From Psammoneis japonica (Eukaryota): DNA of 64,000 nt. Position numbers and translations under genes: made by a program. The DNA lies in assembly GCA_008632985.1 (NCBI GenBank), contig QPGO01000058.1, forward strand, positions 1 through 64,000, written 5' to 3'. Below the pieces are notes generated by a model, which did not search any database, had not been told where the DNA came from, and saw only the letters and a program-made list of their open reading frames with translations. This document shows positions 1 through 57,249 of the stretch, piece after piece (position 1 is the stretch's first letter; every line of letters starts with the position of its first letter).

Positions 1-106
1 GTTTGAGAGCACAAAACGCGCACCACATGGCGCACACAGTGCACAGTCGTGCACACGCTGGTTTGGCCTTTCTTGGAGATTTTTTTTTTGTTGTTTTAGG
101 CCAGGC

Positions 107-450
107 TGTTGAACAGACAAGTCAATGTCACCAAAAGGGAATCCTCTGAGGTTTCCTGTGCTGCTCATTGCACTTGTCCTGGTTGCCATTCTTGCAATGT
201 AAAAGGGCACCTCAACCTGCTGATGGTGCACCAGCTGACGCGCGTGCAACTCTCGCACAAACCAGACGCATGGCTCACTCTAAAGAGTGAGAGCCGCTGC
301 AAAAAGAAGGTTGGAAGGACTGGCAACAAATGCCCACTCATTTCCAATGTGTCATCCAGCTAACCATGTCAGGATCCAAAGCACCCTCTCTTCAGCAGAT
401 GTGGTGCTTCCAGGTCTCCTGTGGCTCCCACTCTCGTCCAGAGATGCTTG
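107..450. repeat. LTR-like direct repeat (left copy), similar to 6535-6885
   Basis: 107-185 'tgttgaac...agtcaatgtcaccaaaaggga.tcctc..aggtttcctgtgc..ctcattgcacttgtcctggttg' recurs at 6535-6610. 340-450 recurs at ~6783-6885. Both begin TGTTG (reads ...CAACA on the element strand). True LTR length is unresolved. Confidence 0.6.
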
Positions 451-3400
451 AACACAATCCTGCTGCTGCTGCTGTCGATGTGTCAGGGCTTGTTCCTCAC
501 ATGCTGGAGCTGTCCCATCAGGTGTCTCTGCATTGAACTCATTGACTCAATCTTTTTGTTCATCATCTTTCAACTTGGGAAAATGCGACATCTTGTTGAG
601 CACGTCTGTGACATCTCGATCACATTCCATGAACTCACAAAACGAGGATGACACACACGATGCACAGCAATTCTGTGCCACTGAGTTCTTGTCATTGCAA
701 CCAACCAATCTGCAACCACAATCCAACCATTGATCACTTTGAGATCTGACACAAAGAATCCCATCTTTGCTCTCTGGTCCACTTTAAATGGGACCTTGGC
801 TTGACAATGTCGCGACCGAAAAATGTTGCTGGCTTGCATGCATCCAAAAGACAAACCCATCTTTGTCTCACACCAGTCCATGATGGACCATGTCACACTC
901 ATTCTCCTTTGAATTGAGCTTCACAAGCAGGTCAAAAACACCCTTGCTGTTCTGCCACATTTGGGACAGCTGACTCTTGACTCATCAGCAGTGTGATGAC
1001 ATCTCATCTGCCCAGTGCAAGTTGAAGGTTCTGGATCTGGCAACGCATTGATCCAGCAAACTCATCTTGAGCTTGTCATTCTCTTCACAGTTTTAGCAAA
1101 CATGTCTGGCCTTGTAATTTTTCATCAAAACAAAACATTTGCCAGCACTCACTGGTCTTGTGCGCATTCCTTCCGTGCATCTTGGCTTCTCCCATGACAC
1201 TCTCATCATCATGTGTGGAGAACATCAGCACAGCAGCAGACACACACCTCAGCTGACTGTGTGCCCAATGCCTCACTGTGCTTTCATAAAACTCTTTCAT
1301 GGTGCAATGTGTCTTTGCCTCCACAATTCCTCCCACACTGACTCAAGTCTCTCAATCTCCACATGCAGCACATTCTCTCTGCCCATGTTCTTTCTTTTGT
1401 CTGCACCTGTCATCAATTGATGTGAGTCAGCAGCATCCCATCTTGTGTGTGGGTCAATGCATGGTGACATCCTTCTGCTTGCCAACCACTCCACATGAGC
1501 TCATCTGATGTAGAGCTGAAACCTCCTGCTGCTCTCTGCAATGGGTGCTCTGGGTGCGGGTTTGTTGCACTCAGCACCCTGCTCATTGGCGGTCCCATTG
1601 GGTGGATTCTTTGTCTCTCAAAGAACTTTGGCCAGCAGTTGCCAGGCCATTTCTGTTCCATGGGCTCAAACCATGCAGCACTGGCATGGATCTCATTGAC
1701 AATGCACTCTTCCACAATTGTTGTTCTTTTGGCACAAATTATGTGCACAGGTCTCAGGGCTCTCCTCTCACCTCATGTTTGTGTTGAATGTTGAGCTGTC
1801 AGGGATCTTTCACCCACATGCATCAGAACTCTCATTTGACATCACAAAGAGCAGGTCTCACACCTGTTGTGCTTGAAATTGGCAGCCCACAACAGCTTCT
1901 TTAAACTTTCAGAGCTTCTTTCTTTGTGATGGCTTGGTCATGAAGTCTCCTGGCATGTCATTGGCAGGACAGCATTGCACTGGCAAGTTGCCCTTCTCAA
2001 TCTCATTGGCAACAAAGAAGTGGCAAATGTTGAGTGCTTGTGATTGCTTGCCAGCACTCTTTTGTGCCCATCAGTCTCCAGTGGGATCATGGCACTCTTG
2101 TTGTCCTGGCACAGGATGTTCTTGTTGATTGGATTTTCTTGGTGCTCCATGAGCAGCTTGGTCTGCAGTGTCATGGTCATGGCATTGTCAACTCCAACAA
2201 GTTCAGCTTCTGTGCTGCTTTGGGCATTGAGCTTCTGGTGCTTCAAGGTGGCCTGCACTGCTCCGTCACCCACAGTTGTGACTCCTCCAGCAAGACTCTT
2301 GAAACTGGGATGTGCTGCAAATGATGTGTCCACATGCCACTTGACAACTCAGAGGCCCTTCATGCTCAATGCAGTGACTTTGTTTCTTGTCCAATTCAGA
2401 CACTTGAGACAATGGACGACCAGCTTCCTCCAGCCCTTGTTGGCAGGAGCTCTCACTTGTGTGCACAATGTGGTGACAGTGGGGCACATGTTTGTCTGGT
2501 CTCTCATGGACAGGAACAATCCCTTGGCCACCCATGCATGGAAGGTCTGAGCCTTTTTGTCTGATGATCTTGTTCCACAGGTGTCAAATGTCTTCTCTCC
2601 ACAGAATCCATGCTCTTTGTCTTTTCCAGAGACTCATCAATCATCTTTTGAACACAGCCTGCCATGTCAGCTTTCACTTTTTCTTTCTGACCAAAGTCCA
2701 GGGACATGCCAAGACAATCATGTCTCTTCCCTCACATGCAGCAATGGCTTCACCATGGCTGCCACACATCTTGTTTGGCCAGCTCAGGAACTCATCATTT
2801 GCTTTTGGGTTCTTGTGACTTGGCAACAGGTTGTCCACATGAAATTGAATCATGTGCTGCTTGTCATTGACAGCACAATTGGCAATGCAGGGGTTGCATG
2901 GGTCAAGATTAAATCCCATCTTCTCCAAGTCTTTTTGATGCTTGTTGCACCACAGAGCAGAGCCACAAGTGGCACGCTGCAAATGGCTCCAATGACTTGC
3001 ATGCAGGTGACTCTCTTGCCTTCTCAGGGACCACATGAGGTCTGCACAGGTTGGGATCAATGCTCACAAGCATGTCCACAATCTTTCATGGGCATCAACA
3101 ATCTCACAGTCATGAGTGTCCCCTCCTGGGATGCAGCGGGGCTGGCTGACTTGTCTTTGTCCAGCCATTCTTGGGTCAGCTTGCATCAAGGCTGCCATGG
3201 CCTTGGTCCTTTCAGTTGGGGTCATGTCCTTGACCAATGTTGGTGCAAAGCACACTTGGTCATGAATTTGTTTGATTTCTTTCTGCAAGGCATCATGCCC
3301 CTTTTGGCCAAACACTTTGAGACCTTCTTGGAGCAAATGTTTCTGGACAGAACTTGTGCTGTTTCCACTTTGGAGTGGGTCATCAATGTCACACATGAAG

Positions 3401-4253
3401 TGTGCAAGTGCCATTGCTGTCTCTGCTTTACATTCAATGTCGTCCCTCAGATTGGGGCTCATGTTGGCATGCAAATGGTGTGGCAGGACTCAAGCTTGCA
3501 TTGCTTCTTTGCCATCTTTCCAATTTCTGTCACTCCTGCAAAGCAAACTTTCTTTTCTCTGTGTCTCTGTGATGTCATGTTGAAGGATGTTTTGCTTCTT
3601 TTTGTCACTCCACCGGGCATGGCTCTTGCTTCTTCCTCCAATCATTGTCCTTCCCATTTGTTGTCATCCTGGGAATTGTTGTCTTCTCCACACTCTTCAT
3701 TGTTGCAGTTTTCATTCTGTTTGGCTTCTTGCTCCTTGTGAGCTCAGTGCTGTTGGTTGCCACTGGACCTTTCATTGGCCAGCATTTTGTTTGCTTCTTT
3801 GCATTCATCATCATCTGAGTCAGGTTTCTCCATGCAGTGTTTGGCTTCTGACTCAACTGCGCAGTTTGTGTCATTTTTGCTGTCATCATTTTTGCTTTTG
3901 CAGTCTTGTCATCTTTGTTGTTGAACTGTCACTTTCATGTTTGCTGTTGTCCACTTGCCCTGCAGTCCAATCAACATTGCGCAGCTCATCTCCACATTTC
4001 CCTGTGAACTTGAGATCCTTGATGCCTTGTTGCATGGCCATCTCCTTGACAGCCACAACATGTGTGTCAGTTGAGGGTGCCAAGGTGCACTTCTTGCACA
4101 GGTTCAATGTCTTCCCCATGCACAGGTTCGCAGCACAGCAACTGCCCTTGGGTGAGTCAAAATGTGGTTGCAAGCAGATGCTGCCTGTCAACACCATGCA
4201 CTCCCACAGTGTTCATCTCATCATTCTTGATGTGGGAAATGACAAGTTTCCCA

Positions 4254-4941
4254 AACTCAAGCTGAAAATTTTGCAGTTGCAGTTTCTTTGTTGTGCAATG
4301 GCATGTGGACTGCAAGTGTCAGAAATCTCTTCCTTTTGCAGGTGCGTGTTCAACATGACAGTGTTCTTCATCACAGCTTGTTTGCACATCAGCCTGGGTG
4401 TTGTCTTGTGCAGCATGTGATGGTGGGTGGTGGCTGAGGATTGCTTCTTGATGGTCTGCGAGCTTTGCTCAACTCTGGGAGGGAACTCAAGCTGAAAATT
4501 TTGCAGTTGCAGTTTCTTTGTTGTGCAATGGCATGTGGACTGCAAGTGTCAGAAATCTCTTCCTTTTGCAGGTGCGTGTTCAACATGACAGTGTTCTTCA
4601 TCACAGCTTGTTTGCACATCAGCCTGGGTGTTGTCTTGTGCAGCATGTGATGGTGGGTGGTGGCTGAGGATTGCTTCTTGATGGTCTGCGAGCTTTGCTC
4701 ACTCTGGGAGGGAACTCAAGCTGAAAATTTTGCAGTTGCAGTTTCTTTGTTGTGCAATGGCATGTGGACTGCAAGTGTCAGAAAAATCTCTTCCTTTTGC
4801 AGGTGTGTGTTCAACATGACAGTGTTCTTCATCACAGCTTGTTTGCACATCAGCCTGGGTGTTGTCTTGTGCAGCATGTGATGGTGGGTGGTGGCTGAGG
4901 ATTGCTTCTTGATGGTCTGGGAGCTTTGCTCAACTCTGGGA
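4254..4941. repeat. Near-perfect tandem triplication (~230 bp unit) inside the Copia integrase region
   Basis: Unit 'aactcaagctgaaaattttgcag...caactctggga' starts at 4254, 4484 and 4713. Confidence 0.95.
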
Positions 4942-6534
4942 ACATGGTCTTTGGCATTCACATGGATTGGCTCTAGATTCACACCATCCACAACTTCTGC
5001 AAGCATGTCCTTGAACTTGGGATTGCACTCAACAAAGTCTGTCTTTAACAGGGCCATGTTGTGCCATCAGAGAGTCATGTCCAAGGCTTTGCACATGTCT
5101 TCATGCTTCTTGGAATTCAGTCTCACACTCGATTGGTGCTTGATTGTTTTGTCAATTGTGCACAGTGTCTTGACACTGCACACTTCTACATTGTCAATGC
5201 AGAGGGTCATGTCTTCTCTCTGCTTCTTGCAGATCTCAGGTGGAATGGCAATGACATCATTCCTCTCACAGGAACAGTGCACATGCTTGGTCTTGCCTTT
5301 TGGTGCATCTGTCGGTGGACCTCACATGGCCACCATTCTGTCCACATCTTCAGGTGGGATGGACAGGTTTTTTGCCTGATTAGATTGCAGGAACAGCTTG
5401 AAATTCCTTTGCACTGGGTGTTCCAGCCTCTCAGTGTGGTCTCAATGCTTCCTCAGCATTCACTGCCTCTTGTTTGGAGCAGCCTTTCATGCTCTGTTTC
5501 ACAGTTGGAACAACAGTTCCTGATGCACTCCTGTGCTTCTTGTTGGTCTTCTTTGCAACCTTCTTGTCCTTCAACAGCATCATGCTCACATGTGACTCAT
5601 CTTGTTGGAGCTCTTTTGCATGATCAAAGAATTGCCAGCTTGGCACAAGTGCAAAGGCACACAGTCCAATGTCGTTGACTTTGAACACCATGACAGCATT
5701 CTTGATTAATCCAACCAACATCTTCTTGCTGTTGAGACCTTTGCTTGTTGCATCCTGTTGATTCTTAATCTGGATGGGTGGTCATTCAATGACTTGTCTT
5801 CCAATTGCTTTGCTTCCAGCATGTGGAATGGGTGTTGACCTCTCATGGAGTTAAACATGAGTGACTGGATCAGCTTCAGCAGTTTGAACAGGTCATCTCT
5901 GATCCCCGCACAACTGGGATTGGTCTGCACTCTCTGCTTCATTGGCTTGGCACAGCAATCATCTGGGATTGCTGCAAATGCAGTGCTCTTGTTCTCTTTG
6001 AGCTTCTTGATTTTCTCATTGCAGCCATGTAACTTGATCTTGCACTCTTGTTCCAGTTGCCTTTCTTCTCTTGCCCTTTTGTCTTTCAGGGTCTGGTGGT
6101 CTTTGTCTGAGCTTTCTGGTGCTTCTGTCATTGCCTTTGCTGGTGTTGGGCTCTTGCTGGCAAACTTCATGCATTTCATGTCTTCTGGGGACCTTGCCAG
6201 ATGCATGCCCTGGTCACAGTCCTTCTGTGTGTGGTTGTCAATTTTCTCCTTGACCTCTTTGAATGTTGCATTGCAGGAGTTTGCTGTTCATCAATGCATG
6301 GATGAAACCTCATTTCTGGCCTGAAGCTCTTCTTGGGGCTGGTCTTCTTGATCTTGTTTCAGCAAGACTTCTGGCCTCTGCCACCCCTGCCTTGATTGCA
6401 CAATTGCATCCTCAGCCTCCAGTGCTTCCTCCTCCTCTGCCACCAACAATGCAGGTTTTCTGTTTCTGATGATTGAACAGAGGTCAGTGCCACATCATGC
6501 ACCAAACGCAGTGAGTGTGACTCTGTGGAGTGAA

Positions 6535-6885
6535 TGTTGAACCAAGTCAATGTCACCAAAAGGGAGTCCTCCAAGGTTTCCTGTGCCACTCATTGCACTT
6601 GTCCTGGTTGATGTGGCAGCTGTGATTTACCTGGTGGAAGCTCTCAACAAGTTTGTTCTTGCAGCGCAAACAGCACTGCAGACACAGGTCTCCACAACAC
6701 AATTTGTGCAAGCCAGATGATTCACTCCAAAGAGGGAGCTAAAAACAACGTTGATGAGATTGACGACAATTGCACATTCATTTTCAAAGTGTCATCCAGC
6801 CCACTGCATCAGGATCCAAAGCATCTGCTCTTCAACAGATGTGCTTCCAGGTCCATCACATTCCCCACTGCTTGTCCAGATGCTG
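6535..6885. repeat. LTR-like direct repeat (right copy; 5' LTR end of the minus-strand Copia)
   Basis: Matches 107-450 in two blocks and lies just upstream of the gag-like region on the minus strand. Confidence 0.6.
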
Positions 6886-7661
6886 CAAGACAGGCAGGCA
6901 TGCCAGCACTGCCTGAGCCAAGGACGACTCTCCCTCTGCCATGCTGCACCCAGTCTCCTCTCAGCCATGGGCTCTTTCACTTTGAGGTGGGCATGTGCCA
7001 CACAGCACAGCACATCACAATGCAACTCTGGTGGGGGCAGGGGCCGTGGAAAAGGTGCAAGAATGTTTGACATGGGTGCACATGAGATGCTCACAAATGA
7101 ACACATGCAGCCTTTGGTCATCTCATGTGCTCTTCCTCTGGCAACAAGGTGTGTGGGGGGCAACAAGTGGGGGACAAGTCAGCTGGGCCAGATCTGCAGC
7201 TCTGTGGAGTGCTGCAACCCCGGCAAGTGCAGAGAGACATTGCTCTCCAGCACACTGTGCAAAAAACAAAGTTTTGGAGGTGGGAGGGCATTTTTGGCTT
7301 TGCAGACTGTTCCTGATTTTGGGTTGCCACAGCTGGCCACAGCATGTGCTGCAAACAGCTGTCCAGAGCGAGGCTGTCTTCCAGCTGCACCACTTCCTCT
7401 CACTGTGCCTGGGCATTCTGCCACATGTCCTGGCTCCTTGCTGAGAATTTCTCTCATGCACTTGGTGGGAAAAACAAGCTCTCCTTTGCACAGACTTTCC
7501 CACACAAATTGACATCCAGCAGAGATTTGCCAATTTTGATTGTCCATTTGAGAGAGAGAGAGGCTGCCTTGATTTGAACCCATTCAAATCAAATGGTCTG
7601 TCTGCCCCACAGCAACAAACACTCAGACGACAACACTCACCACATGTTAACAACAACATCC

Positions 7662-7707
7662 GGCCACTGTTGAAGCCACCATGAATGTCTCACTCCTGAC
7701 TTCAGCC
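7662..7707 (+). ncRNA. Highly degenerate hammerhead ribozyme copy
   Basis: GGCCA-CTGTTGA-AGCCACCAT-GAAT-GTC...GAC-TT-CAGCC; homologous position in the repeat module. Confidence 0.4.
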
Positions 7708-8230
7708 AATGTTGTTGTGCCTGCCATTGCTTCTGAATGGTTTGACAAATGTCTGAAGTGCAGCCATTCATGTGCTCAGATCCCAATGACACCAAATTAA
7801 GGATGAAACCACTGCACCTTTGACTTCTTGCCCGAGGCCACAAGCCCAGCAAACTGCAGCCACTTTTTCATAAAAAGCACATGGTCTCATCTTTGGTGAC
7901 ACTGCAAGAGCACCAACACCCCAAGACAACCCTCCAATCTTTCCACATGTGCCATTTCACCCAAATGATCTGCCATCCAGTGAATTGCAAAAACTTTGGA
8001 AGGGAACCACAACCCAGGCACCCAGCCTGCTCACCACCACTCTCCCAGCTCTGCAATCATGCCTGCCAGCACATTGGACTTGACTGCATGATCATCTGCT
8101 GCAGTCACTCATGCAACCTTGGCAACCTCTTTTGTTGTGCCACAACCTTTGCATCTCAACCCCCCCAGTTTTGTCCCACCGGATTGCAAACAGAAAGGCC
8201 GCTGAGAGAGAGAGAGAGAGAGAGAGAAAG

Positions 8231-8271
<41 letters not shown>

Positions 8272-9742
8272 CAGCAAGAGACTCCTCAGTGACTGGCTCA
8301 CTGCATGCAAAGCTTGCATCACTCCAATGGAATGTGAGCACATCAAACACTGTTTTGAACAAACTGACAAAGACCCGTTTCCTGTCTTCTGCCTCACTTT
8401 AAAGGTGCACAAGCCCCGCCACTGCAATCTTGGCCAATCGCACCCACCAGTGGCAGCCTGCTCTGTGGCTTGGGCATCTGGGTAGACAACAAGCTCCAGA
8501 AGATTGCTCACTGCCAACAATCACACTTCAAGAGCTCCCTGGACCTGAAACAAGCACTCGTCCAAATGGAAACACCACCGAATTGCCTGCTCTTTGTGTC
8601 TGATGCTGAGGCCTGTCACTTTAACATGCCCACCAACAAAGCGCTCCAACTGATTGCTTCCCATCTTCAACATCACATGAACAACTGCAATGATGTGCCA
8701 ATGGAAGCCCTCATCAAAGCACTCCAAATTGCAATGAACAACAATGCATTCACATTTGGAGACACTGCCTGGCACCAGTGCAATGGAACCGCCATCATGG
8801 GCACACCACCTGCCCCTCCATGCACCACCTTGTGCCACACACTTCACAAAGACATGCTCCTGGAGGAGTTTGGCTCCCAGCTTTTTCACTGCAAATGATT
8901 TGTTGATGACGTCTTTGGCACCTGGCACATCACCAACACCAACACCGACAATGCCACCTGGGAAGCATTCACCTCCAGGCTCAATGACTTTCACATCACC
9001 TGGATCACAAGTGCCCGAAGAGCCATCAAGTTGACTTCATGGACCTTAAAATCTCACTCCAAGGCTCCCACCTTCACACTGCCCTTTTATGAAAAAGAAA
9101 TGAATCCACACGTGCACATTCCACCCCACTCAGATCACCTGCCGGAGTGCTCACACTGGCCCAATCATGGGCATGCCCTTTTGCTTCAAAAATCTTTGCT
9201 CCAACATTGCCAACACAAAGGCAAAAATGAGACTGCTCCACCTTTGACTACAAGCTGGAGGCCACAAGCCTGGCAAACTACAACCACTCTTCCGAAAGGC
9301 ACACGACCTCATTTTTGGAAATTCTGCCAGAACAACACTGGAACACAAGTCGAATCCCATCTTCCTGCACATCCCTCATCACCCAAATGACCATCCAGTG
9401 AATTGCAGAAGATTTGGAAATGTGCAATGGCCACTCCTCCCTGCTCACAACCCCTCTCTAACCTGCAAAACTGAGCCAGACAATGCATCAGCCTTGAACG
9501 CATGATTGCGTGCCACACCAGCCACTCACACAACCTCGGAAACACCTTCTTTCTCACCGCAAACTTTGCACCTCCCAAGGCCCCCCTGTTTTGTCCTGCT
9601 GGATTGCAAACAGGGCAGCCCCTGAGAGACAAAGAGAGACAGAGAGATGGAGATTGAATTCGAATTGATCCAATCAACTTGTCCACCCTCCTTTGGATCT
9701 TTTCAATGCAACAACCCCAGCCCCATGTTAACAACAGCAGCC

Positions 9743-9790
9743 TGCCGCTGATGAAGCCACCACAAAAGTCTTGTTCTCCTGACTTTGGCC
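9743..9790 (+). ncRNA. Degenerate hammerhead ribozyme copy
   Basis: TGCCG-CTGATGA-AGCCACCAC-AAAA-GTC...GAC-TT-TGGCC. Confidence 0.5.
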
Positions 9791-10058
9791 AACACCATTG
9801 TGCCTGCCATTTGCTGAAATGGTTGGACAAACATCCAATTGAGCAGTTCCACCTCAGCCACTTGTGTCATTTGTTTGTCACATTTGATGGAAAATTGGCT
9901 TCACCAATTTTGGTTGTTTGTTCAAGAGAGAGAGACAGACAGAGAGAGAAACAGTGTGGCAAATTGATTTGAAAAAGCAATCAATCAAGTCCACCCATCT
10001 GTCCTCCACCACTTGGATTTTTTGTGCAACAACCTCAACCACGTGAACAACAACAGGC

Positions 10059-10104
10059 AGCCACTGATGAAGCCACAGCAAAAGCCTCACTCCTGACTTT
10101 GGCC
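10059..10104 (+). ncRNA. Degenerate hammerhead ribozyme copy (CGAAA>CAAAA)
   Basis: AGCCA-CTGATGA-AGCCACAGC-AAAA-GCC...GAC-TT-TGGCC. Confidence 0.5.
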
Positions 10105-10920
10105 AATGTTGTTGTGTCTGCTGTTTGTAGAAAAAGTTGAACAAATGTCCAATTAAGTGGCTCCACCTTGGCTGCTTGCATCACTTGTTTGTTGCAAATG
10201 ATTTGTTGATGACATCTTTGGCATTTGGCACATCACCAACACCGCCACCAACGCTGCCACCTGGGAAGCATTTGCCTCCAGGCTTGACAACTTTGACATT
10301 GCCTGGATCACAAGCACCACCTGAAGCTGCCAAGTTAACTGCATGGACCTCACAATCTCACTCCAAGACTCCCACCTTCACACTGCCCTTTACAAAAAAG
10401 AAATGAATCTGCACATGTGCATCCCACCTCACTCAGCCCACCCGCCTGGAGCACCCACTGGCCCAATCATGGGCATGCTCTTCCACTTCAAAAATCTTTG
10501 CTCTGACACCACCAACGCAAAAGAGGAAATGAGACTGCTCCACATTCAACTGCAAGCCCGAGGCTGCAAGCCCAGCAAACTGCAACTGCTCTTCCAAAAG
10601 GCACACGACCTCATCTTTGGAAATGGAACCAGAACAACACTGGAACACCAGTCAAATTCCATCTTCCTGCACATCCCCTGTCACCCAAATGATCCACCAT
10701 TGAGTGAATTGCAGAAGCTTTGGAAAGGTGCAATGGCCACCCCTCCCCACTCACAACCCCTCTCAAACCTTCCAAATTACGCTCAACAACGCATTGGCCT
10801 TGACCGCAGGATTGCACACCACAGCCGCTTGCACAACCTTGGAAACCTTCTTTCTTGCCACAAACTTTGCACCTCCCAAGCCCTCCAGTTCCATCCTGCC
10901 AAATTACAAACAGGGCAGCC

Positions 10921-10977
<57 letters not shown>

Positions 10978-11080
10978 GACAGAGAGATGGCAATTGAACT
11001 TGAATTGTCCCAATCAACTGGTCCATCCTCCTTTGCATCTTTTTAATGCAACAACCTCAACAATGTGAACAACAGCAGCC

Positions 11081-11128
11081 AGCCGCTGAAGAAGCCACTG
11101 CAAAAGTCTCATTTTCCTGACTTTGGCC
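11081..11128 (+). ncRNA. Degenerate hammerhead ribozyme copy (CGAAA>CAAAA)
   Basis: AGCCG-CTGAAGA-AGCCACTGC-AAAA-GTC...GAC-TT-TGGCC. Confidence 0.5.
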
Positions 11129-11254
11129 AATGTTGTTGTGCACGCCATTCACTGAAACAGTTGGATGAATGTCAGATTGAGCAGCTCTGCCTTGGCCACT
11201 TGTGTCATTTGTTTGTCACATTTGATGGAAAATTGGCTTTGCCAAGTTTGATTG

Positions 11255-11299
<45 letters not shown>

Positions 11300-11411
11300 A
11301 ACAGCACGGTGAGTTGATTTGAAAAAAGCAATCAATCAAGTCCACCTGTCTGTCCCCCACCACTTGGATCTTTTTAACACAACAACCTCAACCACATGAA
11401 CAACAACAGCC

Positions 11412-11457
11412 GGCCACTGATGAAGCAACTGGGAAAGTCTCACTCCTGACTTCAGCC
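11412..11457 (+). ncRNA. Hammerhead ribozyme motif copy (core intact, stem II mutated)
   Basis: GGCCA-CTGATGA-AGCAACTGG-GAAA-GTC...GAC-TT-CAGCC. Confidence 0.6.
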
Positions 11458-11569
11458 AGCATTGTTGTGCCTGCTGTTTGTCAAAACAGTTGGACAAATG
11501 TCCAAACCAGCAGCTTTGCCTCAGCTGCTGGTGTCATCTGTTTGTCACATTTGACAGAGAATCAGTTTG

Positions 11570-11607
<38 letters not shown>

Positions 11608-11717
11608 CAAGACATGAGCTGATTTGAAAAAACAATCAATCCAACAATCTTGCCTGTCCTCCTCCACCATTTGGATCTTTCAATGCAACAACCTCAACCA
11701 CGTTAACAACAGCAGCT

Positions 11718-11763
11718 GACCACTGATGAAGCCACTGCAAAAGTTCCACTCCTGACTTTGGCC
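11718..11763 (+). ncRNA. Degenerate hammerhead ribozyme copy (CGAAA>CAAAA)
   Basis: GACCA-CTGATGA-AGCCACTGC-AAAA-GTT...GAC-TT-TGGCC. Confidence 0.5.
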
Positions 11764-11869
11764 AATGTTGTTGTGCCTGCCATTTGCCAAATGGTTGGAC
11801 AAACATCCAAACTGGCAGCTCCTGCCTTGGCCACTTGCATTCTTGTCAGCAAAATTTGATGGAATTGTT

Positions 11870-11919
<50 letters not shown>

Positions 11920-13804
11920 ACCAAAAAACCTTCAATCATTGCTTGGTCTTGGCCTGAAGTTTGTTCCTGCACCACGATTCACCAACAATGGGAAGTCCTC
12001 CAAGATCCAAGAACAATCACTTGGATGATTCAAACAAGACCTTGACAAATGCAAACATTTTGTCAGTGCATCAATCGACAATGACGATGGAGATTACAAC
12101 CCCAGAATGTGCCTCTGGTCTAGCTGGACATCTCTCCCTTGGAAACTCACCAACATTGTCAAATGATGCCACACTGCCTTCAAGAAACAAGTCACCAACC
12201 TGCTTGTGAAATGCAGAGGCAGAACCAATCTCCTGCCCCACCAACACCATGCCCTCACTTGCCTCTGCAAGCAAGATGACTTCACAACAGCCCAATGCAA
12301 CAAGAGCCAGGGACCCACCATCGTTGAAACAACTGAACACATCTCAGAGATGGCACTCCACAGCCATTTTAACAACACCAACGCACATTGATTCTTGAGT
12401 GAATTTGAAGCCAGAATCCAAGAACGCTGCATCAAGAGACTCCTCAGTGATTGGCTCATGACGTGCAAAGCCAACCTCACTCCAATGGAACACAAGCACC
12501 TCAAACACTTTCTCAAAACTGTCAAAAACCTGTTTCCTGTCTTCTGCCTCACTTTAAAGGTGCGCATGCCCCCACCACTGTGATCTCAACTGATCATCTC
12601 TGCCAGTGGCAGCTTTCTGTGGCTTGGGCATCTGGGCAGATGACAAGCTCCAGAAGGTTGCTTGCCACCAATGATCAAACTTCAAGAGCTCCCTGGACCT
12701 GAAACAAGCACTCACTCAAATGGAAATGCCACCAAACTGCCTCCTCTTCACATCTGATGCTGAGGCCCATTGCTCTGATGAACCTGCCAACAAAGCACTT
12801 CGACTGATTGCTTCCTGTCTTTGATGTCACAAAAACAACTGCAATGATGCACCAATGAAAGCCCTTGTTAAAGCACACCAAATTGTGATGGACAATGATG
12901 TGTTCACATTTGGAGACACCACCTGGCACCAGCACAATGGAGCCACCATGGGCACACCACCTGCCCCTCTGCATGCCACCTCATGCTGCGCACTTCACAA
13001 AGACATGATCCTGGAGGAGCCCAGCTCCCAGCTGTTTTGCTGCAAATGATTTGTTGATGAAGTCTTTGGCATCTGGCACATTGCAGACACTGCCACCACC
13101 ACCACCACCACCTGGAAAGCATTTGCCTCCAGGCTCAATGACTTCAACATTGCCTGGATCACGAGCGCCTGAAGCCACCAAGCTGACTTTGTGGACCTCA
13201 CAATCTCACTCCAAGGCTCCCACCTTCACACTGCCCTCTGCAAAAAAAATGAATCCATGTGTGCACATCCCACCACACTCAGCTCACCCACCTGGAGCAC
13301 TCACCGGCCCAATCATGGGCATGCTCTTTCACTTCAAAAATCTTTGCTCCAACACCACTGATGCAAAAGCAAAAATGAGACTGCTCCACCTTCGACTGCA
13401 AGCTCAAGGCTGCAAGCCCAGCAAACTACAACCGCTCTCCCAAAAAGCACACAACCTCATCTTTGGAAATGCAACCAGAGCAACACCAGAACACCAGTCA
13501 AATCCCATCTTCCTGCACATCCCTTGTCACCCAAACAATCCACCATTGAGTGAATTGCAGCAGCTTTGGAAAGGTGCAATGGCCACTCCTCCCTGCTCAC
13601 AACCCCTCTCAAACCTTCAAAATCATGCTCAACAATGCATCAGCCTTGACCGCATGATTGCATGCTGCAGCCACTGGCACAACCTCAGAAACCTTCTTTC
13701 CTGCCGCAAACTTTGCACCTGCAAACAGGGTGGCCCCTGAGACAGAGAGACAGAGACAGAGAGACAGAGAGACAGAGCAGAGAGACAGACAGAGCGACAG
13801 ACAT

Positions 13805-13850
<46 letters not shown>

Positions 13851-13944
13851 ATGGCAACTGAACTCAAATCATCCCAATCAACTCATCTGTCCTCCTTTGG
13901 ATCTTTTTAACACAACAACTTCAACCATGTGAAGAACAGCAGCT

Positions 13945-13992
13945 GGCTGCTGATGAAGCCACTGCGAAAGTCTCACTCTCCTGACTTTGGCC
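13945..13992 (+). ncRNA. Type I hammerhead ribozyme motif (best-preserved copy) in PLE pseudo-LTR
   Basis: GGCTG-CTGATGA-A-GC(cact)GC-GAAA-GTC(tcactctcct)GAC-TT-TGGCC: intact catalytic core, 2-bp stem II, stem III GTC/GAC, stem I GGCYG/YGGCC. Confidence 0.75.
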
Positions 13993-14877
13993 AATGTTGT
14001 TGTGTCTGCCATTTGCTGAAACAGTTGGATGAATGTCCAATTGAGCAGGTCTGCCTCAGCTGCTTGCACTGTTTGTTTGTCACATTTGACAATCGTTTGA
14101 GAGAGAGAAAGAGAGAGATGGATTGTTGCAGCAATCATGCTGCCATGAAACCTGGGCATTGAACATGCCAGACAAGATGTGTCAAAACCTTTGCTGTATC
14201 TTGGGCCACAGCAGCAGCAGCTTTGAAGCCTCAGTTGTTGGATCCTTGTTGATGAACAACTTTTGCAATTGCCCAACAGAGAAAACACTTGTTTTGATGA
14301 GATGTGAAATTTTGAGCAGGTCACTGTGCTTTGTCATGGCATCCAAGGTCTGTGTGCCTGCTCCACCTCTCAACCCCATGCCAACAGCAAGGGCTGGAAA
14401 ACACAAACACACAAAATGGTGGGGGCAAGACAATCTTGCAAAGAAACTCAAATGCCAGACCACCACCTCTGCTGCATGTTCAATGAACAGTGCTTGTGCA
14501 GCTGTGGTCTTTGTTTTGGGGGGTGACAAGCACAGGCGGCGGCCTTGGAATGCAGGGCACTTGCTGGTGAAAAGAGGTGCTGGAAATCAAAAAGGCACTG
14601 ATTTTTTTTGAAGTGCCAATTTTGAAGGTGCTGAACACAACTTGATCCAAACAGCCATCAAAGGATCTTTTTTGTGGTGCAGCACAAGCTCTGTTGTCTG
14701 CTTTTCAGCTGGATGGTGAGCCATCTCCTAAAATGAGGGAGCATGACTCTTCACCACATTTTTTGCTGTGTGCATGTCTCTTGCAAGCATGACAAAGGTT
14801 TGCAAACATTTGATTTCTATGGCCTCCTAATTGTTTGTCCCACAGCCTCAAAGTTGACAAAGACAACTTGAGTGCTG

Positions 14878-15840
14878 CAACAACAATGGTTGGGAAGCAA
14901 AGGCCTTGTCTTGTGACAATGCAGCACCCTGTCTCTTTGACATGACTGGGTTCTTTGGCCCAGCCACCCACCTGCAAGGACAAGAAGACCATCTGTGTGA
15001 CAGTGCAAGTGCTCTGTTGTCTTGGGATGGCATTGGATGACTCCATTGGGGGTCCCAGAGGATGCAATGACAACAATGGTTGGGAAGCAAAGGCCTTGTC
15101 TTGTGTCAATGCAGCACCCTGTCTCTCTGACATGACTGGGTTCTTTGGCTCAGCCACCCTGCCCACAGAGACAAGAAAACCATCTGTGTGACAGTGCAAG
15201 TGCTCAGTTGTCTTGGGATGGCTTTTGGTGACTCCATTGTTTGACTCCAGAGAAGCCAACAACAACAATGGTTGGGGAGCAAATGACTTGCCTTGTGTCA
15301 ATGCAGCACCTTGTGTCACTGGCATGACTGGGTTTGGCCCAGCCAAGAACCAATTTTTGCAAGATGGACAAGGGAACCATCTGTGTGACAGCACCAGAGC
15401 ACTCAGTTGTCTTGGGCTGGCTTTTGGTCACTCCATTGGATCCCAGAGGAGCCAACAACAACAATGGCTGGGAAGAAATGGCCTTGTCTTTTGTCAATGC
15501 AGCACCTTGTCTCTATGACATGACTGGGTTTGGCCCAGCCAAGAACCAATTTGCAAGAAAGACAAGGGAACCATCTGTGTGATGACACAAGCACTCAGTT
15601 GTCTTGAGATGGGCACAAGAGACTGCCCTGAGGAGGCAAGAACAACAATGGTTGGGAAGGAAAAGCATGGTCTTGGGCCAATGCAGCTTTTTTTCTGTCT
15701 GATGTGATTGGTTTGCTTTGGCCCAGTTGCCTCACTTGCAGAGACAAGGGAGCTTTCTGTGCCATGTGACAGTGCAAGCACATGCAGTTGTCTTTGGGTG
15801 GCCTTGGGTGCCTCCATTGTGTCCCAGAGGAGCCAGCAAT
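14878..15840. repeat. Diverged tandem repeat, ~185-196 bp unit x5
   Basis: 'caacaatggttgggaagcaaaggccttgtcttgtg.caatgcagcacc' recurs at ~14881, 15071, 15263, 15459 and 15643. Confidence 0.9.
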
Positions 15841-17989
15841 GACCAGGGCAGGGAGTCACTGAGTGGAAATTCACAGTGTTGCCTGTCTCTTGTTTGGATG
15901 GAAAACCAAGAAAGAGCAGAAGAGCAAGACCCACCTTCAAGTTGCCCACTTTCTTTACAAGGTTGGTCTCCAAAGTCATCATTTCATGGGCATGAAGGGT
16001 CTGTTTCTGAGCTTTCTGGAGAGAGGTGATTGTCTTGTTGGCAGCGGCAATTTTTGAACACACCAAATGGCAAAAAGGTGTTGACTGAGGTCCCGGAGCT
16101 GGGAGTGTGCAGCATGAGTGTCAAAAATTTCAATTTCAACAAGAACACATCAATGTGACAAAATCAAACTTTTGAATGCATGTGCAACATTGACAACTGG
16201 ATGATTCATTGAGTCAGTTTCAAATCATTCAAACCATCATGTTGCAACAAAATCATTGTGATTTTTAAAACAAAGTCATTGCCAAAAAAGAGATTCCAAC
16301 AGGAATCAACTGGCAGGCAGGCTCGCATTTTGGCCAAAAACATGAATTGCTGTTGCTCCCTCACAAGACACAAAAAATGCAAACTCAAGTTGCATCTGAT
16401 GTCTGACAATGAGAGCAGTGGGAACAGGGGCAGCAGCATTGCAAGTGGAACAGAGAAAAATGCAGGACACAAGGTGAGAAAACAAGTGGCGAATGCATGG
16501 AGATCGGGCACACAATGCAAACAACTGACACTTGCGCGCATCTTTGCACACAGATGTCTGGACATGCAACCTGAGCTGCAACGGAAGACAGGCAATGGGG
16601 AAGGACACAAAGGTGAGCAGAAGCAGCACATGAGACAACATTGTAAGAAAAACAAGAAGTGCACAAAACCTGATCATTGGCACAAAGTTTTCTCTTGTTG
16701 CAGGCAACGCTTTGGCCTGCCAAACAGAAGGAACACAAGGCAGCAGATTGTTGCAGAATGATGTCATTGCCTGGTGCAAAGAACAATCATGGAGAGAGCA
16801 AGAGTTGCTGCAAGGGAGAGAACACAAGGGCCAAACAACACATTTGCTGCATGGGAACTGTGAAGGACAACAGGAACTGGTGGAATGCAGGAGAAAAGAA
16901 GAGCGGGAGAAAGGGAGCATTGTTTGGTGTGCAGTGCTGCAGAAATGACAATGTGGAACAATTGCAAATCAGATGACAAGCAGCGCACAGGCGATGTGCA
17001 ATCAGGTCAACAAGACAACTGAGCGCATCATCATTGTCAGAAATGAACAATGTCAGAAAGTTGTCATGAACACATGGTTGCCAAGACAGAAATGATGCAA
17101 GTGTCAAGTTTCATCATGTGTCATTTCCTGCTTGGAAGGTCACTTTAATTGTGGACAGATGAAAACAATGTTGAAACAAGCAGATGTGAAAAATTGACAA
17201 GAATGTGCGCACAATGTGACTGATTTACATTGGCCATGTTAAACCCCACTTGGAAGGTTCAAACAACAATTGAACTCCCTTCATTGATGATTGTTGAGGA
17301 CTTGTTAAGAACACATGATTCTGAACAAGAGAATGTGAACTCTGAACAAGAGCAAATGTGTTTTCCAGATGACCTGGACATGGCAAAGGAGAGTGTGGAA
17401 CAAGTTTGATCCACCCACAACTGTTGAGACAGCTGTTGAGGCCAGTGAATGGGTTTGCAAGGGAGCGCATGTAAACTGTGTTCCAAGGGCCAAAGGATGG
17501 CACACTCCTGGTGACACTGAGGAATGTCAGACAAGAGTGTTGCTCAAGCAAATTGCAGCTGCAAACATTGAGCTCAATGAACCATCATCCTCTCTGCAAC
17601 TGCCAAAAATGTGCAACAGGAGTGAGGTTTCACTTCTCAATTGACATCATTTGAGTGAGGACAAGCACGAAGCCATGCTTGATGCAATCCACCAGCGCAA
17701 GTCACTCAATTGTTTTGAGGAATGTCTGGACAAGGAAGAGCATGACAACAGCAAAACTGGTGAGTTTGAGGAAGAGAATGACGATGAGGAGGAAAGCATG
17801 GCAGAGGACAGTGAGGAGGAAAAGAGCACAGCAGGGGACAGAGAAAGCAATGAGTGTCAGGAACAAAATGATGAAAGGGAAAACAAACAAACACTGTGAT
17901 TGTCGCTTTACATCACATGACTGGATGAACCTTCCTGCACAAGAGCTTTCCTTTTGCCATTTGCCTGCTGTTTCACTGCCCTTGGGAAG

Positions 17990-18880
17990 TTCAAATTGGT
18001 GCACCATGGCCACTTGTTTCTGGACATTTTTTTGCCACATTCTTTGTCTCATGTTCCTTGTTTCCAAGACACCAATTCAAGCACTTGATGCCCTTTGCTG
18101 GCAATGCAAAATGGTGATTGGAGTCAAAGATCCACCCATGGTGCAAGGAAATGCAGCGGTTGTTCACCCAATGGCACAAAGTTGTGCAGCCATCATTGCA
18201 GGTCATCACATCAAATTCACCATCCACTTCCAAGGAAATGATTTGGTCAAAACTGCCACAAAATTTCATGTTTGAGTTTGTCAGTGGGAAGTTTCCCTTC
18301 AAACAGTCTTTCAGCATGTGCTTTGCAATTAACGTGCAATTGTTGTCAGTGGTGGCATGGTTGGCAGAGGTTTCAACATGAGATGCAATGCAATCTCTCA
18401 CTTCCAGGTTGCCAACACAATTAAAAACACTGGGCAGGGACAAAAACATGCAAGTCTCTTTGTGTCTTTGCAAGAATTTTGGCACGTGCTTTGCAAACAA
18501 CATGCAATTGTTGTCAGTGGTGGCATGGTTGGCAGAGGTTTCAACATGAGATGCAATGCAATCTCTCACTTCCAGGTTGCCAACACAATGAAAAACACTG
18601 GGCAGGGACAAAAACGTGCAAGTCTCTTTGTGTCTTTGCAAGAATTTTGGCATGTGCTTTGCAACAACATGCAAGTGTTGTCAGTGGTGGCATGGTTGTC
18701 AGAGGCTTCAATGTGAGATGCAATGCAATCTCTCATTTCCAGGTTGCCAGCACAATGAAGAACACTGGCCAGGGACAAAAACACACAAGTGTCTTTGTGT
18801 CCTTGCAAGAATTTCACAGGCAGGCCACTTGTCAGCAAATTGGCATCCAATGATGTCAACATGTTTCCTTCCGGCAACAT
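17990..18880 (-). pseudogene. Eroded ORF with a possible papain/C39-like cysteine-peptidase signature, probably part of an unclassified TE
   Basis: 'FLQGHKDTCVFLSLASVLH' (Q-x4-C motif) followed by 'CISLHHGWIFDSNHHFALP...LNWCLG'. Lies in CpG/TpA-eroded DNA. Confidence 0.35.
18315..18814. repeat. Tandem triplication, 168 bp (56 codon) unit
   Basis: 'caYgtgctttgcaa' at 18315, 18483 and 18651; the minus-strand translation repeats 'KFLQRHKETC.FLSLPSVF.CVGNLEVRDCIASHVETS'. Confidence 0.92.
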
Positions 18881-20923
18881 GCAAAAACCCTCCTCTGGCT
18901 TTCAATCTTTCAGGTCTCTCCAAACATCTGGAAACTGCATCTTGAAATTGCGCTCAGCCCAATCAAGGGTCGCATGTGCACTGGATGGTTGCCCTCCAGG
19001 GTGCAACCAAGAACAAAATCAGCACCCCATGCAGAAGCTTTTGCATCTCCTCCAGATGCAATCTCTTTGGTCTTGCAATTTGTGGTGGGTTGCAAATCAC
19101 GCTCACCTTGTGCCTGACCTCTTTGGTGCATTTTCGATTTAATTTCTGGGCAACGTTGGGTTTGTGTTTAACTTGTTCAATGAGGCCCACACACATGTCC
19201 ATGGGATGGTCATTCAATGAGTTGGCCCTTCAGTTGTGCCATTCTTCACACAACATGACACCCTCATTCTGCTCAGCAAAGCAGCCAAACAAGTGAGGAA
19301 CAGCTCCTGCAGAATTGCCAGGCCACAGCAGATTCCTGCTCCACGAGCTGGAATCAATCCAAGTGCTTTTTTCAACCAACAACATGACTTGAGCATTGTC
19401 GTGTGTTTGCTCAGTTGTCTCCCTCTTTTGTTGGTGACACTTGTCTTTTTGCTCAACCGACGAAACGCAGGTGCTCTTGGTGCTGTTGGTTTTGCATTTG
19501 AGCTGCAAAATCCAATGAGATCACTGCAGCTGTGGCTTTCATGAGCTCCATCTGGTGTTTGCAATGCACATTTCCCACCCTCTCTTTCTTCTTCTCTGCC
19601 TTGCCAAGTCTTCTGCATCCTTCGAGTCCCCCCTGATCCTGCTCGTCCTCTTCCCCCTGCCTCTTTCTCCTCAGTTGACTCATCCGTGCCTTGCTCTTGA
19701 TCCTCCTTTTCTTTGTTTTTGTCTTGCAGTTGCAAGCTTTTGGTGCTCTCCTGTGTGCATGTCATCCTCTTCTCTCTCTTTCTCTCTGTCTCTCTCTCCC
19801 TGTCTCTCTCTCTTCCCCCCCCCTCTCTCAAGCATTTCCTCCACCATCTCAGCACAAGTCAAGTGACGATGGTGATGCACTCTTCTGCAAAACAAATGAC
19901 ATTGCAGTTGGGGAGCCCCCTTGCACCAATCAGCAAGGTGAGCCAGTGGCTCCTTGCAATGGCCCTTCCTTCTTTCTTCATCGGAGGTGAGCTTGCAACA
20001 TGGCCCTCAATGGTCAGGGGAGCTGCCCAGTGGCACCCGCGTGTGAGGAGTTCACGCGCAATGTCACACCCAGTGGCGTGGGGGGATGGGCAGATGCAGA
20101 GCAAGGGTGGAACTGAGTCATGCAGGTGGGAAAGGCGATGGATTTCGAACTGGGGTTAGAGAGTTGGGATTGTAGTTTGGTGGAGTAGCGGGTCAATTGG
20201 TCAGCGATGTGTGTTTGTCGTTGGTGACAGTCTTCAACTGGGATTCCCAACTGCGCTGCCACGTAGAAATCACTTTCGTTTCTACTGTACTTCATACATA
20301 CGTGCGACATTTAATTGCCTTAATATCCGACACAAATGCTATCAGCAGTCATGAGGAAATATCGTTCGAGGGACAAAAAATGAGAACAACATCGAATACA
20401 AAGTCGAATAAAATTTTTCCCTTGACATGCGGTGCAGGCAGTTGCGCGCGTAAAAAGGGCGGGAAAATGAAACATTGAAGCTTTCAGGTCTGTATTGCTT
20501 AGCTCTGCGGGAATACAAAAGTCGGATAAATTTTTCCCCTATGTAGACATACCATTACGGTACTGTACTGTACAGTACAGGCAGTTTTTTCGCGCATAAA
20601 AAGGGCGGGAAAATGAAATATTTGTATCGGACTCTACATATGTACAGTATGTAAAATCGATATGAAGACAACTCGAACATTTATTGGGGATAAAAAATGC
20701 CAAAAACGTTACGACGTATATTACTTATGAGCTTACGCTTATTTATAGTTTTGAGAGTCCGCCTCTCTCAAGCCTCTTCCGATGTCACACAATTCTTTTT
20801 TAGCTGTGTATCTACCGGTACCAACAAGACTACTACTAACTCAAAAGTGATTTTCGATTTCCCTCGTGCTTGTTGCTGTAGCCAGTGTTCTCATACACAC
20901 CAGAGCAAGACCCCCAGTGACAA

Positions 20924-35167: not shown

Positions 35168-35234
35168 TCCAGACGCCTGTAGCTATTCCAGTCGCCTTCA
35201 CTACTGAGTTTTCAAAATGCCGAGATTCTGAAAG

Positions 35235-40525: not shown

Positions 40526-40592
40526 TTGGCACGTCCATAGGCGTCAGTCAAAGCGCTGGTATATCGACCTACCTGAAAGAAGGTAGATTGAT

Positions 40593-57240: not shown

Positions 57241-57249
57241 CCACCCTCA

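Follow-up and report, generated by a model that had tools for sequence, protein, structure and literature searches.

Retrotransposon blocks in a probable diatom contig have lost TpA and CpG to TpG and CpA, probably through two separable mutational processes

What could empty long stretches of a genome of both TpA and CpG while ordinary genes lie directly beside them? The question is raised by contig QPGO01000058.1 from a probable diatom, Psammoneis japonica (assembly GCA_008632985.1), of which positions 1 to 64,000, a stretch of 64 kb hereafter called the window, were analyzed. A first-pass annotation, made from the sequence alone, had described positions 1..20150 as a block of transposable elements (TEs) in which TpA and CpG had both been converted to TpG and CpA. 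We counted dinucleotides per kilobase and then as block totals, and expressed them as observed over expected (o/e). The depleted stretch described at the left of the window was confirmed, but the extent given was incomplete, as a second depleted block at ~46080-61290 had gone unreported. We refer to the two as Block 1 and Block 2 (Table 1).

The depletion is deep and even. Block 1, which continues past the left end of the window, contains 69 TA, 161 CG, 2158 TG and 2349 CA, and Block 2 contains 37, 90, 1762 and 1865, respectively. Summed over both blocks there are 106 TA against ~1390 expected and 251 CG against ~1985 expected, when expectations are scaled from gene-region frequencies. TpA is down ~13-fold, to a fraction of 0.3%, and CpA and TpG are up 1.8-1.9-fold. 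Per kilobase, o/e inside both blocks ranges over 0.02-0.10 for TpA, 0.00-0.37 for CpG and 1.4-2.7 for TpG and CpA, and this holds over the whole blocks, tandem arrays and stretches without open reading frames (ORFs) included. The earlier counts for two short intervals, one within Block 1 (2041-2340, with 0 TpA and 1 CpG) and one beyond its border (20281-20340, with 7 TpA and 3 CpG), were exact. At an o/e of 0.10-0.14, CpG is more strongly depleted in the blocks than in the average vertebrate genome.

Two other quantities stayed steady. The total of pyrimidine-purine (YpR) dinucleotides is 23.5% and 24.7% in the blocks and 24.6% in the genes, and G+C is 47.9-49.8% and 48.9%, respectively, as predicted if YpR dinucleotides were interconverted through transitions. 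Among the dinucleotides made of A and T, depletion is limited to TpA (o/e 0.04-0.05): AA/TT stands at 1.15-1.19 in the blocks versus 1.08 in the genes, and AT at 0.82-0.89 in the blocks. The consequences for apparent coding content are marked. In block ORFs of at least 90 codons, Tyr makes up 0.08% of residues versus 2.46% in the gene region, with Cys at 6.2 versus 2.8%, His at 5.4 versus 3.3% and Gln at 6.0 versus 3.8%, in agreement with the earlier remark that these ORFs nearly lack Tyr and are rich in Cys, His and Gln. Stop triplets on both strands number 121 TAA, 43 TAG and 1764 TGA, and the near absence of TAA and TAG leaves long meaningless ORFs in every frame of the blocks.

The blocks end abruptly. 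The last depleted stretch of Block 1 stops before a TA at 20157, and Block 2 is bordered by TAs at 46077 and 61294. The limits, at ~20150, ~46078 and ~61290, are sharp to within tens of bases and adjoin normal genes, the DNA just outside them being intergenic with normal TA. The region between the blocks served as an internal control (Table 1), and the genes after Block 2 are likewise normal, with o/e of ~0.6 for TA and ~0.9 for CG. This control includes a 3.8-kb segmental duplication (85% identity) that differs by 292 transitions, 222 transversions and only 6 exchanges of TG for CA or the reverse (TG/CA doublets) in 3818 columns, and a 0.85-kb duplication with 2 such doublets. Both kept their TA and CG, so repetition as such is not the trigger. 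Targeting follows domain or element identity, not duplication, and within the window the effect is limited to the retrotransposon blocks, as the first-pass annotation had held.

Identification of the elements themselves was hampered by their mutation. The degenerate pol region in Block 1, with TGA stops read through, has 145 matches at E <= 1e-10 among representative proteins (phmmer), the top ones carrying RVT_2 (PF07727); Copia homology extends over 1.5-5.5 kb on the minus strand by tblastn coverage. A second, degenerate Copia-like reverse transcriptase (RT) lies in Block 2, and Block 1 also carries an array of RT-like elements (Table 1). The family of the latter, labelled 'PLE-like' earlier, was not confirmed. 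For the two Copia pieces, a word-indexed protein search gave only 3 matches and 1 match, respectively. Pfam reported no TE domain in 93 Block 1 ORFs, 75 Block 2 ORFs and three read-through translations, giving 5 weak low-complexity matches only. Where Pfam saw no domain, homology of block sequences was regained by recoding the DNA as purines and pyrimidines, a coding that is blind to transitions.

Direction, independence and spread of the changes

The direction of the changes was read from homologues outside the blocks. BLASTP alignments of 152 Copia homologues were stacked on the Copia frame of the window (206 local alignments, E <= 1e-5), and a consensus position was one at which at least half of the homologues carry the same residue. 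In Copia pol, all 7 positions with consensus Tyr read Cys (5) or His (2). None of the 7 consensus Arg was kept: 5 losses (Gln 3, Cys 1, stop 1) fit a change of CGN to CAN or TGN, and the other two read Met and Lys. Other residues were retained, namely Gly at 13/15, Ala at 8/9, Pro at 6/7, Cys at 3/3 and Trp at 2/2 positions. With looser thresholds, 11 Tyr sites read Cys (8), His (2) or Asn (1), and 1 of 11 Arg sites was kept. The Copia-like RT of Block 2 has Cys at 3 of 4 aligned Tyr positions and His in place of Arg twice. These Tyr and Arg positions imply that the ancestral Copia element had TA and CG there. The protein motifs quoted previously, DPCNPC, QCCP, HMCIPP and PCHP, are all present. 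A further feature of the same pol region (1879-3621) is Asn at 5 of 10 consensus Asp positions (GAY to AAY), which might fit a CpG across the codon boundary (NNC GAY).

The window also holds a sequence of 135 bp in both states, an unmutated homologue in normal DNA near Block 2 and a mutated copy within that block (Table 1), matched in purine/pyrimidine coding with a bit score of 172 against noise of at most 80. The normal copy carries 7 TA and 6 CG. In the block copy all 6 CG read TG (4) or CA (2), and 5 of the 7 TA read TG (3) or CA (2), the other two, one of them in a TTAA, differing by transversions; no TA and no CG is left at the aligned positions. The Copia stack and this pair show that the loss of TA and CG in the blocks is mutational and runs from TA and CG to TG and CA. 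The near-saturating A:T to G:C change at TpA on both strands that had been proposed is likewise supported.

Such a change was said to follow no described pathway, a statement now outdated by a 2026 preprint on the chlorarachniophyte Bigelowiella natans (bioRxiv 10.64898/2026.01.13.699255), the one prior report of TpA-specific hypermutation of selfish DNA. According to the preprint, 231 of 302 nuclear mutations in mutation-accumulation lines fell in an integrated giant virus and virophage. Of those 231, 230 were A>G or T>C, every one of the 230 on TpA, at a rate of ~6e-7 per site per generation (~1000x background) and in 11 of 15 lines. Its authors also report that TpA-depleted coding sequences are enriched for RT and DDE domains, and they propose an ADAT2-like adenine deaminase. 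Our literature search returned no description of such hypermutation for diatoms, and the text of PMC2806351 and 10.1101/2025.10.24.684338, as far as covered by a term search, makes no mention of hypermutation, deamination or TpA.

Comparison of the RT-like copies shows that mutation occurred separately in each copy. Pairs of these copies share 78-82% nucleotide identity versus 94-97% in purine/pyrimidine coding (self-BLAST), and in one pair (80.9% and 94.8%) the changes are nearly all transitions. A pair of ~1.1-1.3 kb differs by 28-48 TG/CA doublets, versus 6 in the whole 3.8-kb gene duplication, and both directions of exchange are represented (29 and 19). In an alignment of three copies, TG and CA are mixed in 47 YpR columns and the state is uniform in 118 others, with ~30 further columns in which CG or TA survives in one copy; CG beside TG/CA was seen in paralog columns. 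If TG or CA was chosen independently, the ratio of mixed to uniform columns gives ~60-90 ancestral TA/CG sites per ~1 kb by calculation, which is a normal density, so the copies had ordinary composition when they separated.

Both products also occur within single elements. Tyr became Cys or His, respectively, 8 and 2 times in the window Copia element, 3 and 3 times in locus L064 and 1 and 6 times in locus L044, two metagenomic relatives described below, and the same was true of every element tested. One-strand editing of RNA or complementary DNA (cDNA) can therefore not be the sole cause. The CA/TG ratio on the sense strand is 1.2-1.5 in TEs versus ~1.13 in host genes; the bias of Tyr to Cys over Tyr to His in the window runs opposite to this CA excess and varies between loci. 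We regard it as highly improbable that copies arrived already mutated, after an ADAR-like enzyme had edited the retrotransposon RNA or an APOBEC-like one the cDNA. The recognisable elements of the blocks are indeed retrotransposons, and ADARs prefer a U 5' of the edited A (bioRxiv 10.64898/2026.01.13.699255), in addition to which APOBEC3 and ADAR editing of retroelements and viruses in animals is, like the process proposed here, deaminase-driven hypermutation against selfish nucleic acids. However, the substrates of these enzymes are single-stranded cDNA or RNA, so that the signature falls on one strand, whereas here both strands of integrated DNA are affected, with TG and CA products in one element. 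The depletion moreover runs evenly across the blocks, through tandem arrays and stretches without ORFs, and in B. natans, as described in the preprint, the mutations arise in DNA viruses that are already integrated.

The copies are old, as ~7-8% residual divergence (calculated) remains between paralogs after YpR-type changes are set aside. Against this, the blocks contain only 66 TA outside TTAA compared with 8134 TG and CA. As TG and CA regenerate TA by C>T, we estimate from this balance that TA removal runs at ~100x background, and the TA process may well be still active or have ended only recently.

Some relatives of the window Copia element in metagenome contigs carry the same signature. 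A profile of the window Copia region yielded 80 loci from metagenome contigs, 76 of which have a TA o/e of 0.45-1.02, so these TE lineages are not inherently TA-poor. The remaining four (L064, L044, L049 and L024) have o/e of 0.16-0.30 for TA, 1.57-1.69 for CA/TG and 0.17-0.55 for CG. In tallies that count aligned pairs rather than independent sites, Tyr is kept in 6-28% and replaced by Cys or His in 37-62% of pairs at these four loci, compared with medians of 53% and 5% over the 80 loci plus the window Copia segment, and with 0% and 55% for the window element itself. L005, L071 and L031 are intermediate, with 22-25% Tyr to Cys or His. The TA-poor contigs stem from several different assemblies, and an artefact confined to a single data set would hardly account for them.

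It is extremely improbable that the signature reflects a sequencing or assembly artefact, such as misread modified bases, or a TA/CG-poor composition inherent to these TEs and kept by selection. Heavily modified DNA can mislead base callers, and the public DNA run that backs the assembly may be its own source. Yet short contigs of this run that cover Block 1 agree with the window (two of them, covering 895 and 766 bp, show 2 differences each), the signature recurs in contigs of several unrelated metagenome assemblies, and strand-wise misreading would be expected to yield all TG or all CA and not the mixture seen within elements. Inherent composition is contradicted by the 76 normal Copia loci among 80 and by the Tyr and Arg positions that reveal ancestral TA and CG. 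Another run (of 3 listed for one study) gave no cover of the window. Contigs of run X1 carry other bases than the window at a few sites of the block in 14000-20000, where, for instance, the TA at 14828 reads CA; these may be alleles or paralogs.

Flanking bases and the separable loss of CpG

Survival of TA in the blocks depends on the bases around it. We took expected counts of NTAN from host-gene tetranucleotide frequencies, as a proxy for ancestral TE composition. Of ~131 expected ATAT none remains, and survival is 0.01 for ATAC/GTAT, 0.03 for GTAC, 0.08 for CTAG and 0.18 for CTAA/TTAG, compared with 0.88 for TTAA (40 sites, 46 expected). With all contexts other than TTAA pooled (66 versus ~1345 expected), the contrast has a Fisher odds ratio of 17.8 (p = 1.5e-25). 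TTAA is refractory to the TA process. An additive model of four parameters, in which each strand contributes its own rate, fits all 16 NTAN contexts, with rates by the base 5' of T of 2.95 for A, 2.0 for G, 1.28 for C and 0.16 for T. T>C is thus strongest in TA preceded by a purine, weaker after C and hardly seen after T, which is equivalent to A>G at 5'-T-A-Y. The same rates predict the direction of the product, for example TTAC to TTGC rather than TCAC; for the tetranucleotide excesses, chi-square is 191 under this directional model, 313 under a 50:50 split and 412 with the direction reversed.

The metagenomic loci follow the same order. In L064, L044 and L049 combined, 0 ATAT (24.9 expected), 0 GTAC (14.7) and 2 ATAC (34) survive, compared with 14 CTAC (28), 11 CTAA (20) and 9 TTAA (16.7), and their flank order matches that of the window (Spearman 0.75, p = 0.012). 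The flank rule is new here: it is absent from the text of the B. natans preprint, in which a word search found no mention of CpG, diatoms, trinucleotide, flanking or TTAA. With R-T-A-Y fast, C-T-A slow and T-T-A nearly immune, the rule provides a fingerprint that can be checked against the published B. natans mutations and against candidate deaminases.

We consider it very unlikely that the TA process reflects damage and not an enzyme, with a TpA lesion or another spontaneous change accumulating only in silent repeats, where transcription-coupled repair is absent. The ultraviolet (UV) TA photoproduct is a TpA-specific lesion of this sort, and competition for dimers from neighbouring pyrimidines could explain the poor reactivity of T-T-A and C-T-A; with a paralog background of ~7-8%, slow accumulation would suffice. 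However, the 66 TA outside TTAA against 8134 TG and CA form a balance that needs removal at ~100x background. The borders are also sharp to tens of bases, with TA at its normal level in the intergenic DNA beyond them, and the B. natans signature, as reported in the preprint, arises in the laboratory, in 11 of 15 lines and in two viral regions only, so that it looks regulated.

Loss of CpG follows other rules. Its fitted rates by the 5' base are 1.39 for T, 1.15 for A, 1.04 for C and 0.58 for G, a mild dependence in which GCGC is most retained. A 5' T nearly prevents the change at TA but gives the highest rate at CG. At 4 of 4 visible block edges the TA-free zone is wider than the CpG-poor zone (Table 1). 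In addition, Arg is kept where Tyr is mostly lost in L064 (7/10), L044 (7/8) and L024 (6/6), although some of these Arg codons may be AGR, and L064 and L044 show TA loss with little CpG loss. The mismatch at the edges, the different flank preferences and the loci with Tyr lost and Arg kept together point to two processes, and a mutational reading with two processes is, in our judgement, very probably correct. The single dual system of the first-pass annotation is disfavoured on the same grounds.

The CpG component resembles the decay of methylated CpG known from vertebrates, plants and some fungi, which likewise turns CpG into TpG and CpA in silenced repeats with mild flank dependence. Unlike the pattern in the blocks, such decay alone leaves TpA untouched. 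A change of CpG to TpG and CpA is the decay expected from CpG methylation, and LTR (long terminal repeat) retrotransposons of diatoms are CpG-methylated, as known from Phaeodactylum (PMC2806351, PMC4504042). By this analogy, cytosine methylation probably lies behind the CpG loss in the blocks.

Could one machinery nevertheless account for both losses? This might be a dual deaminase of adenine and (methyl)cytosine, or an oxidase of 5-methylpyrimidines whose products mispair, as oxidised thymine and oxidised 5-methylcytosine (5mC) do. The two targets are the two palindromic YpR steps, both end as TG or CA with the YpR total conserved, and in TA and CG alike it is the flank-adjacent pyrimidine that changes under the directional model. 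The B. natans preprint (bioRxiv 10.64898/2026.01.13.699255) cites ADAT2 enzymes with deaminase activity on A as well as C in DNA. We nonetheless find a single machinery unlikely, as TA is gone at four edges where CpG is half to fully retained, a 5' T blocks TA and speeds CG, L064, L044 and L024 lose Tyr heavily with Arg largely kept, and the B. natans viral regions, with 230 of 231 changes A:T>G:C, are reported without a C>T component.

A coupling of a different kind would be error-prone patch repair, with Pol-eta-like synthesis at WA recruited by repair of deaminated 5mC, which had been among the candidates named earlier. It would link the TA changes to methylated DNA, and TA is a known hotspot of A>G errors by Pol-eta. 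The fit is poor, however, and we give this route very little credence: ApA shows no depletion (its o/e is 1.15-1.19 in the blocks and 1.08 in the genes), the changes are nearly all transitions, and TA loss extends beyond the CpG-poor domain and, in L064 and L044, occurs with little CpG loss.

Explanation and relation to known systems

Our combined findings are best explained by two mutators that would act in place on silenced retrotransposon DNA, after insertion or duplication of each copy. The first would be a TpA-specific A:T>G:C hypermutation of the B. natans kind, able to hit either strand and so to make TG or CA out of TA, the changed base pair being the one beside the permissive flank, which would leave TTAA refractory. 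The second would turn CpG into TpG or CpA in the manner of 5-methylcytosine deamination, over a slightly narrower domain. Jointly they would remove both self-complementary YpR dinucleotides and destroy Tyr codons and CGN codons for Arg. For the first process, the leading candidate is a TadA/ADAT-type enzyme that deaminates adenine in nucleic acids; it would convert A to inosine, a base read as G. Guidance would come from silent chromatin or small RNA instead of sequence duplication, as suggested by the sharp borders, the independence of copy number and the silent target in B. natans. We put the probability of this explanation as a whole, with its two processes, deaminase, guidance and methylation, at roughly 0.6. 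The adenine deaminase step, taken on its own as the simplest chemistry, is more tentative and falls somewhat below an even chance.

The deaminase candidate draws on a likeness of context. Adenine base editors have been derived from TadA, and the natural target of TadA/ADAT is A34 after the invariant U33, which in bacterial tRNA-Arg lies in the context U-A-C (U33-A34-C35), and this resembles the T-A-Y context of the blocks. We know of no natural TadA/ADAT member that edits chromosomal DNA as a defence.

Several points weigh against the explanation. Restriction to TEs is judged here on 64 kb, and we infer both the enzyme and the cytosine methylation. The assembly may, as said, have been built from the very DNA run that backs it. 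The flank rates lean on host-gene frequencies as a proxy for ancestral TE composition, and the directional model misfits some contexts, such as GYRC with 558 observed versus 393 predicted. Of 4 alignable TTAA columns, 0 are TTAA in all three RT-like copies, which implies that many TTAA sites are new and persisting, not ancestral and spared; the match of 40 to 46 TTAA is in part a coincidence of equilibrium. The preference found here for the base 3' of the mutated A (T > C > G >> A) differs from the substrate range of eukaryotic ADAT2/3. One enzyme may act on both A and C, an activity cited in bioRxiv 10.64898/2026.01.13.699255 for the ADAT2 of amphioxus and of Trypanosoma. Finally, the assignment to diatoms is drawn from one gene, whose identity to any database protein is 53% or less.

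Among known systems, that of B. natans is closest. In both organisms A:T>G:C changes at TpA yield TpG or CpA on either strand, the targets are foreign or selfish DNA with sharp borders towards normal genes, affected independently of copy number (here in one 64-kb window), and the long-term footprint is poor in TpA and rich in CpA and TpG, RT- and DDE-type coding sequences included. The hosts differ, however, B. natans being a chlorarachniophyte (Rhizaria) and the source of the window a probable diatom. The preprint reports TpA at 3.3% and 9.2% in the giant virus and virophage, compared with saturated retrotransposons at 0.3% here, and the rate was measured directly in B. natans, whereas ours is an indirect estimate of at least 100x background. 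The window shows the long-term end state of a process of the B. natans kind, in another supergroup and on retrotransposons, with CpG decay in addition.

Repeat-induced point mutation (RIP) of ascomycete fungi is likewise a transitions-only hypermutation by which repeats are inactivated and acquire a dinucleotide footprint. It differs in chemistry and in trigger. RIP changes C:G to T:A mainly at CpA and raises TpA (PMC2621366), whereas TpA is removed here and CpA/TpG raised, the opposite footprint, as had been noted before. It also acts on duplicated sequence, in contrast to the 3.8-kb duplication left untouched in the window.

The signature, saturated in the retrotransposons of a probable diatom and present in several environmental assemblies as well, suggests that such hypermutation is spread through the stramenopile-rhizarian part of the tree, and the organisms concerned carry major ecological weight. 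A bolder proposal is that removal of TA and CG is the work of one ancient stramenopile-rhizarian machinery, perhaps wider, in the form of a chromatin-guided TadA/ADAT-like DNA deaminase complex that recognises the two self-complementary YpR steps and acts on A at R-T-A-Y and on 5mC at CpG. We regard this as a long shot. If true, it would be a general eukaryotic genome defence, like RIP in role and chemically its opposite. In practical terms, the signature conceals transposons from annotation, with Pfam blind to them and purine/pyrimidine recoding recovering their homology. Research on genome defence and base editing could also take an interest in a DNA mutator that naturally targets adenine in a defined context.

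Other features of the window

Table 1 Coordinates of the blocks, elements, edges and duplications in the window. o/e, observed over expected.
Feature	Position	Strand	Detail
Block 1, TpA/CpG-depleted retrotransposon block	1..20150	none	o/e: TA 0.05, CG 0.14, TG 1.83, CA 1.76
Block 2, second depleted block	46080..61290	none	o/e: TA 0.04, CG 0.10, TG 1.95, CA 1.87
Host gene region, unaffected, internal control	20151..46079	none	o/e: TA 0.61, CG 0.94, TG 1.21, CA 1.20
Copia-type pol (RT/RNase H part), degenerate, TGA stops read through	1879..3621	-	phmmer best E = 7e-41
RT-like element array, at least 3 copies, FVDD motif	8272..14118	+	self-BLAST
Highly repeated family	14800..17600	none	summed contig depth up to 4385 vs ~55-200 over genes
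192-bp tandem array within highly repeated family	14878-15612		TRF
Copia-like RT in Block 2, degenerate	56423..57319	+	BLASTP to P0273 (RVT_2), 34% identity, E = 6e-27
Unmutated homologue, 135 bp	45019..45153	+	normal DNA ~0.9 kb outside Block 2
Mutated copy of 135-bp sequence	47032..47164	+	92.6% purine/pyrimidine identity
TA-free, CpG-retaining edge	1-820		TA 5 (32 expected), CG 21 (46 expected)
TA-free, CpG-retaining edge	20038-20150		TA 0 (4.4 expected), CG 7 (6.3 expected)
TA-free, CpG-retaining edge	46080..46600		TA 1 (20.5 expected), CG 17 (29.3 expected)
TA-free edge, right side of Block 2	~61240-61290		CG resumes at 61240, TA at 61294
3.8-kb segmental duplication of CEMIP/G8 beta-helix gene	21859-25628 and 28782-32582		TA/CG normal
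0.85-kb gene-region duplication	20992-21841 and 27120-27966		TA/CG normal, 2 TG/CA doublets

The gene region contains long unbroken ORFs with Pfam matches to CEMIP/G8, DAO (sarcosine-oxidase-like), Efg1 and DnaJ-C11. For the DAO protein, all 5 of the named top matches are diatoms (39-46% identity), and its highest identity to any database protein is 53%. This one gene is the basis for calling the organism a probable diatom, one without a close relative in the database. A 63-bp coding tandem repeat (Pfam PT repeat) is present 12 times at 27970-28724, preceding the second copy of the CEMIP/G8 gene.

In Block 1, the summed contig depth at 14.8-17.6 kb indicates that the repeated family there is very abundant in the genome. 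Microsatellites rich in GA/TC, which translate as ERER runs, lie between the RT-like copies and near the right end of the block (~8190-8280, 10920-10960, 11250-11310, 11570-11610, 11860-11920, 13800-13855 and 19760-19840). Inside the Copia element, at 4254-4941, a unit of 230 bp is repeated three times at 98% identity with TG/CA states common to the copies, so that this array arose after hypermutation had exhausted its targets.

The word TAGAGAGT was found at two block borders; with only two occurrences, in opposite orientation relative to the blocks, it was taken as chance. A pair of repeats at 107-442 and 6535-6880 was considered as the two LTRs of one element and rejected, its divergence (56 transitions, 35 transversions and 9 TG/CA doublets in ~300 columns) being too high to accept. 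A short stretch of the Block 1 Copia element that resembles an LTR is present at 107-166 and 6541-6591 and in a third copy at 46873-46932 in Block 2, with 95-98% identity over 51-60 bases that is detectable only after purine/pyrimidine recoding.

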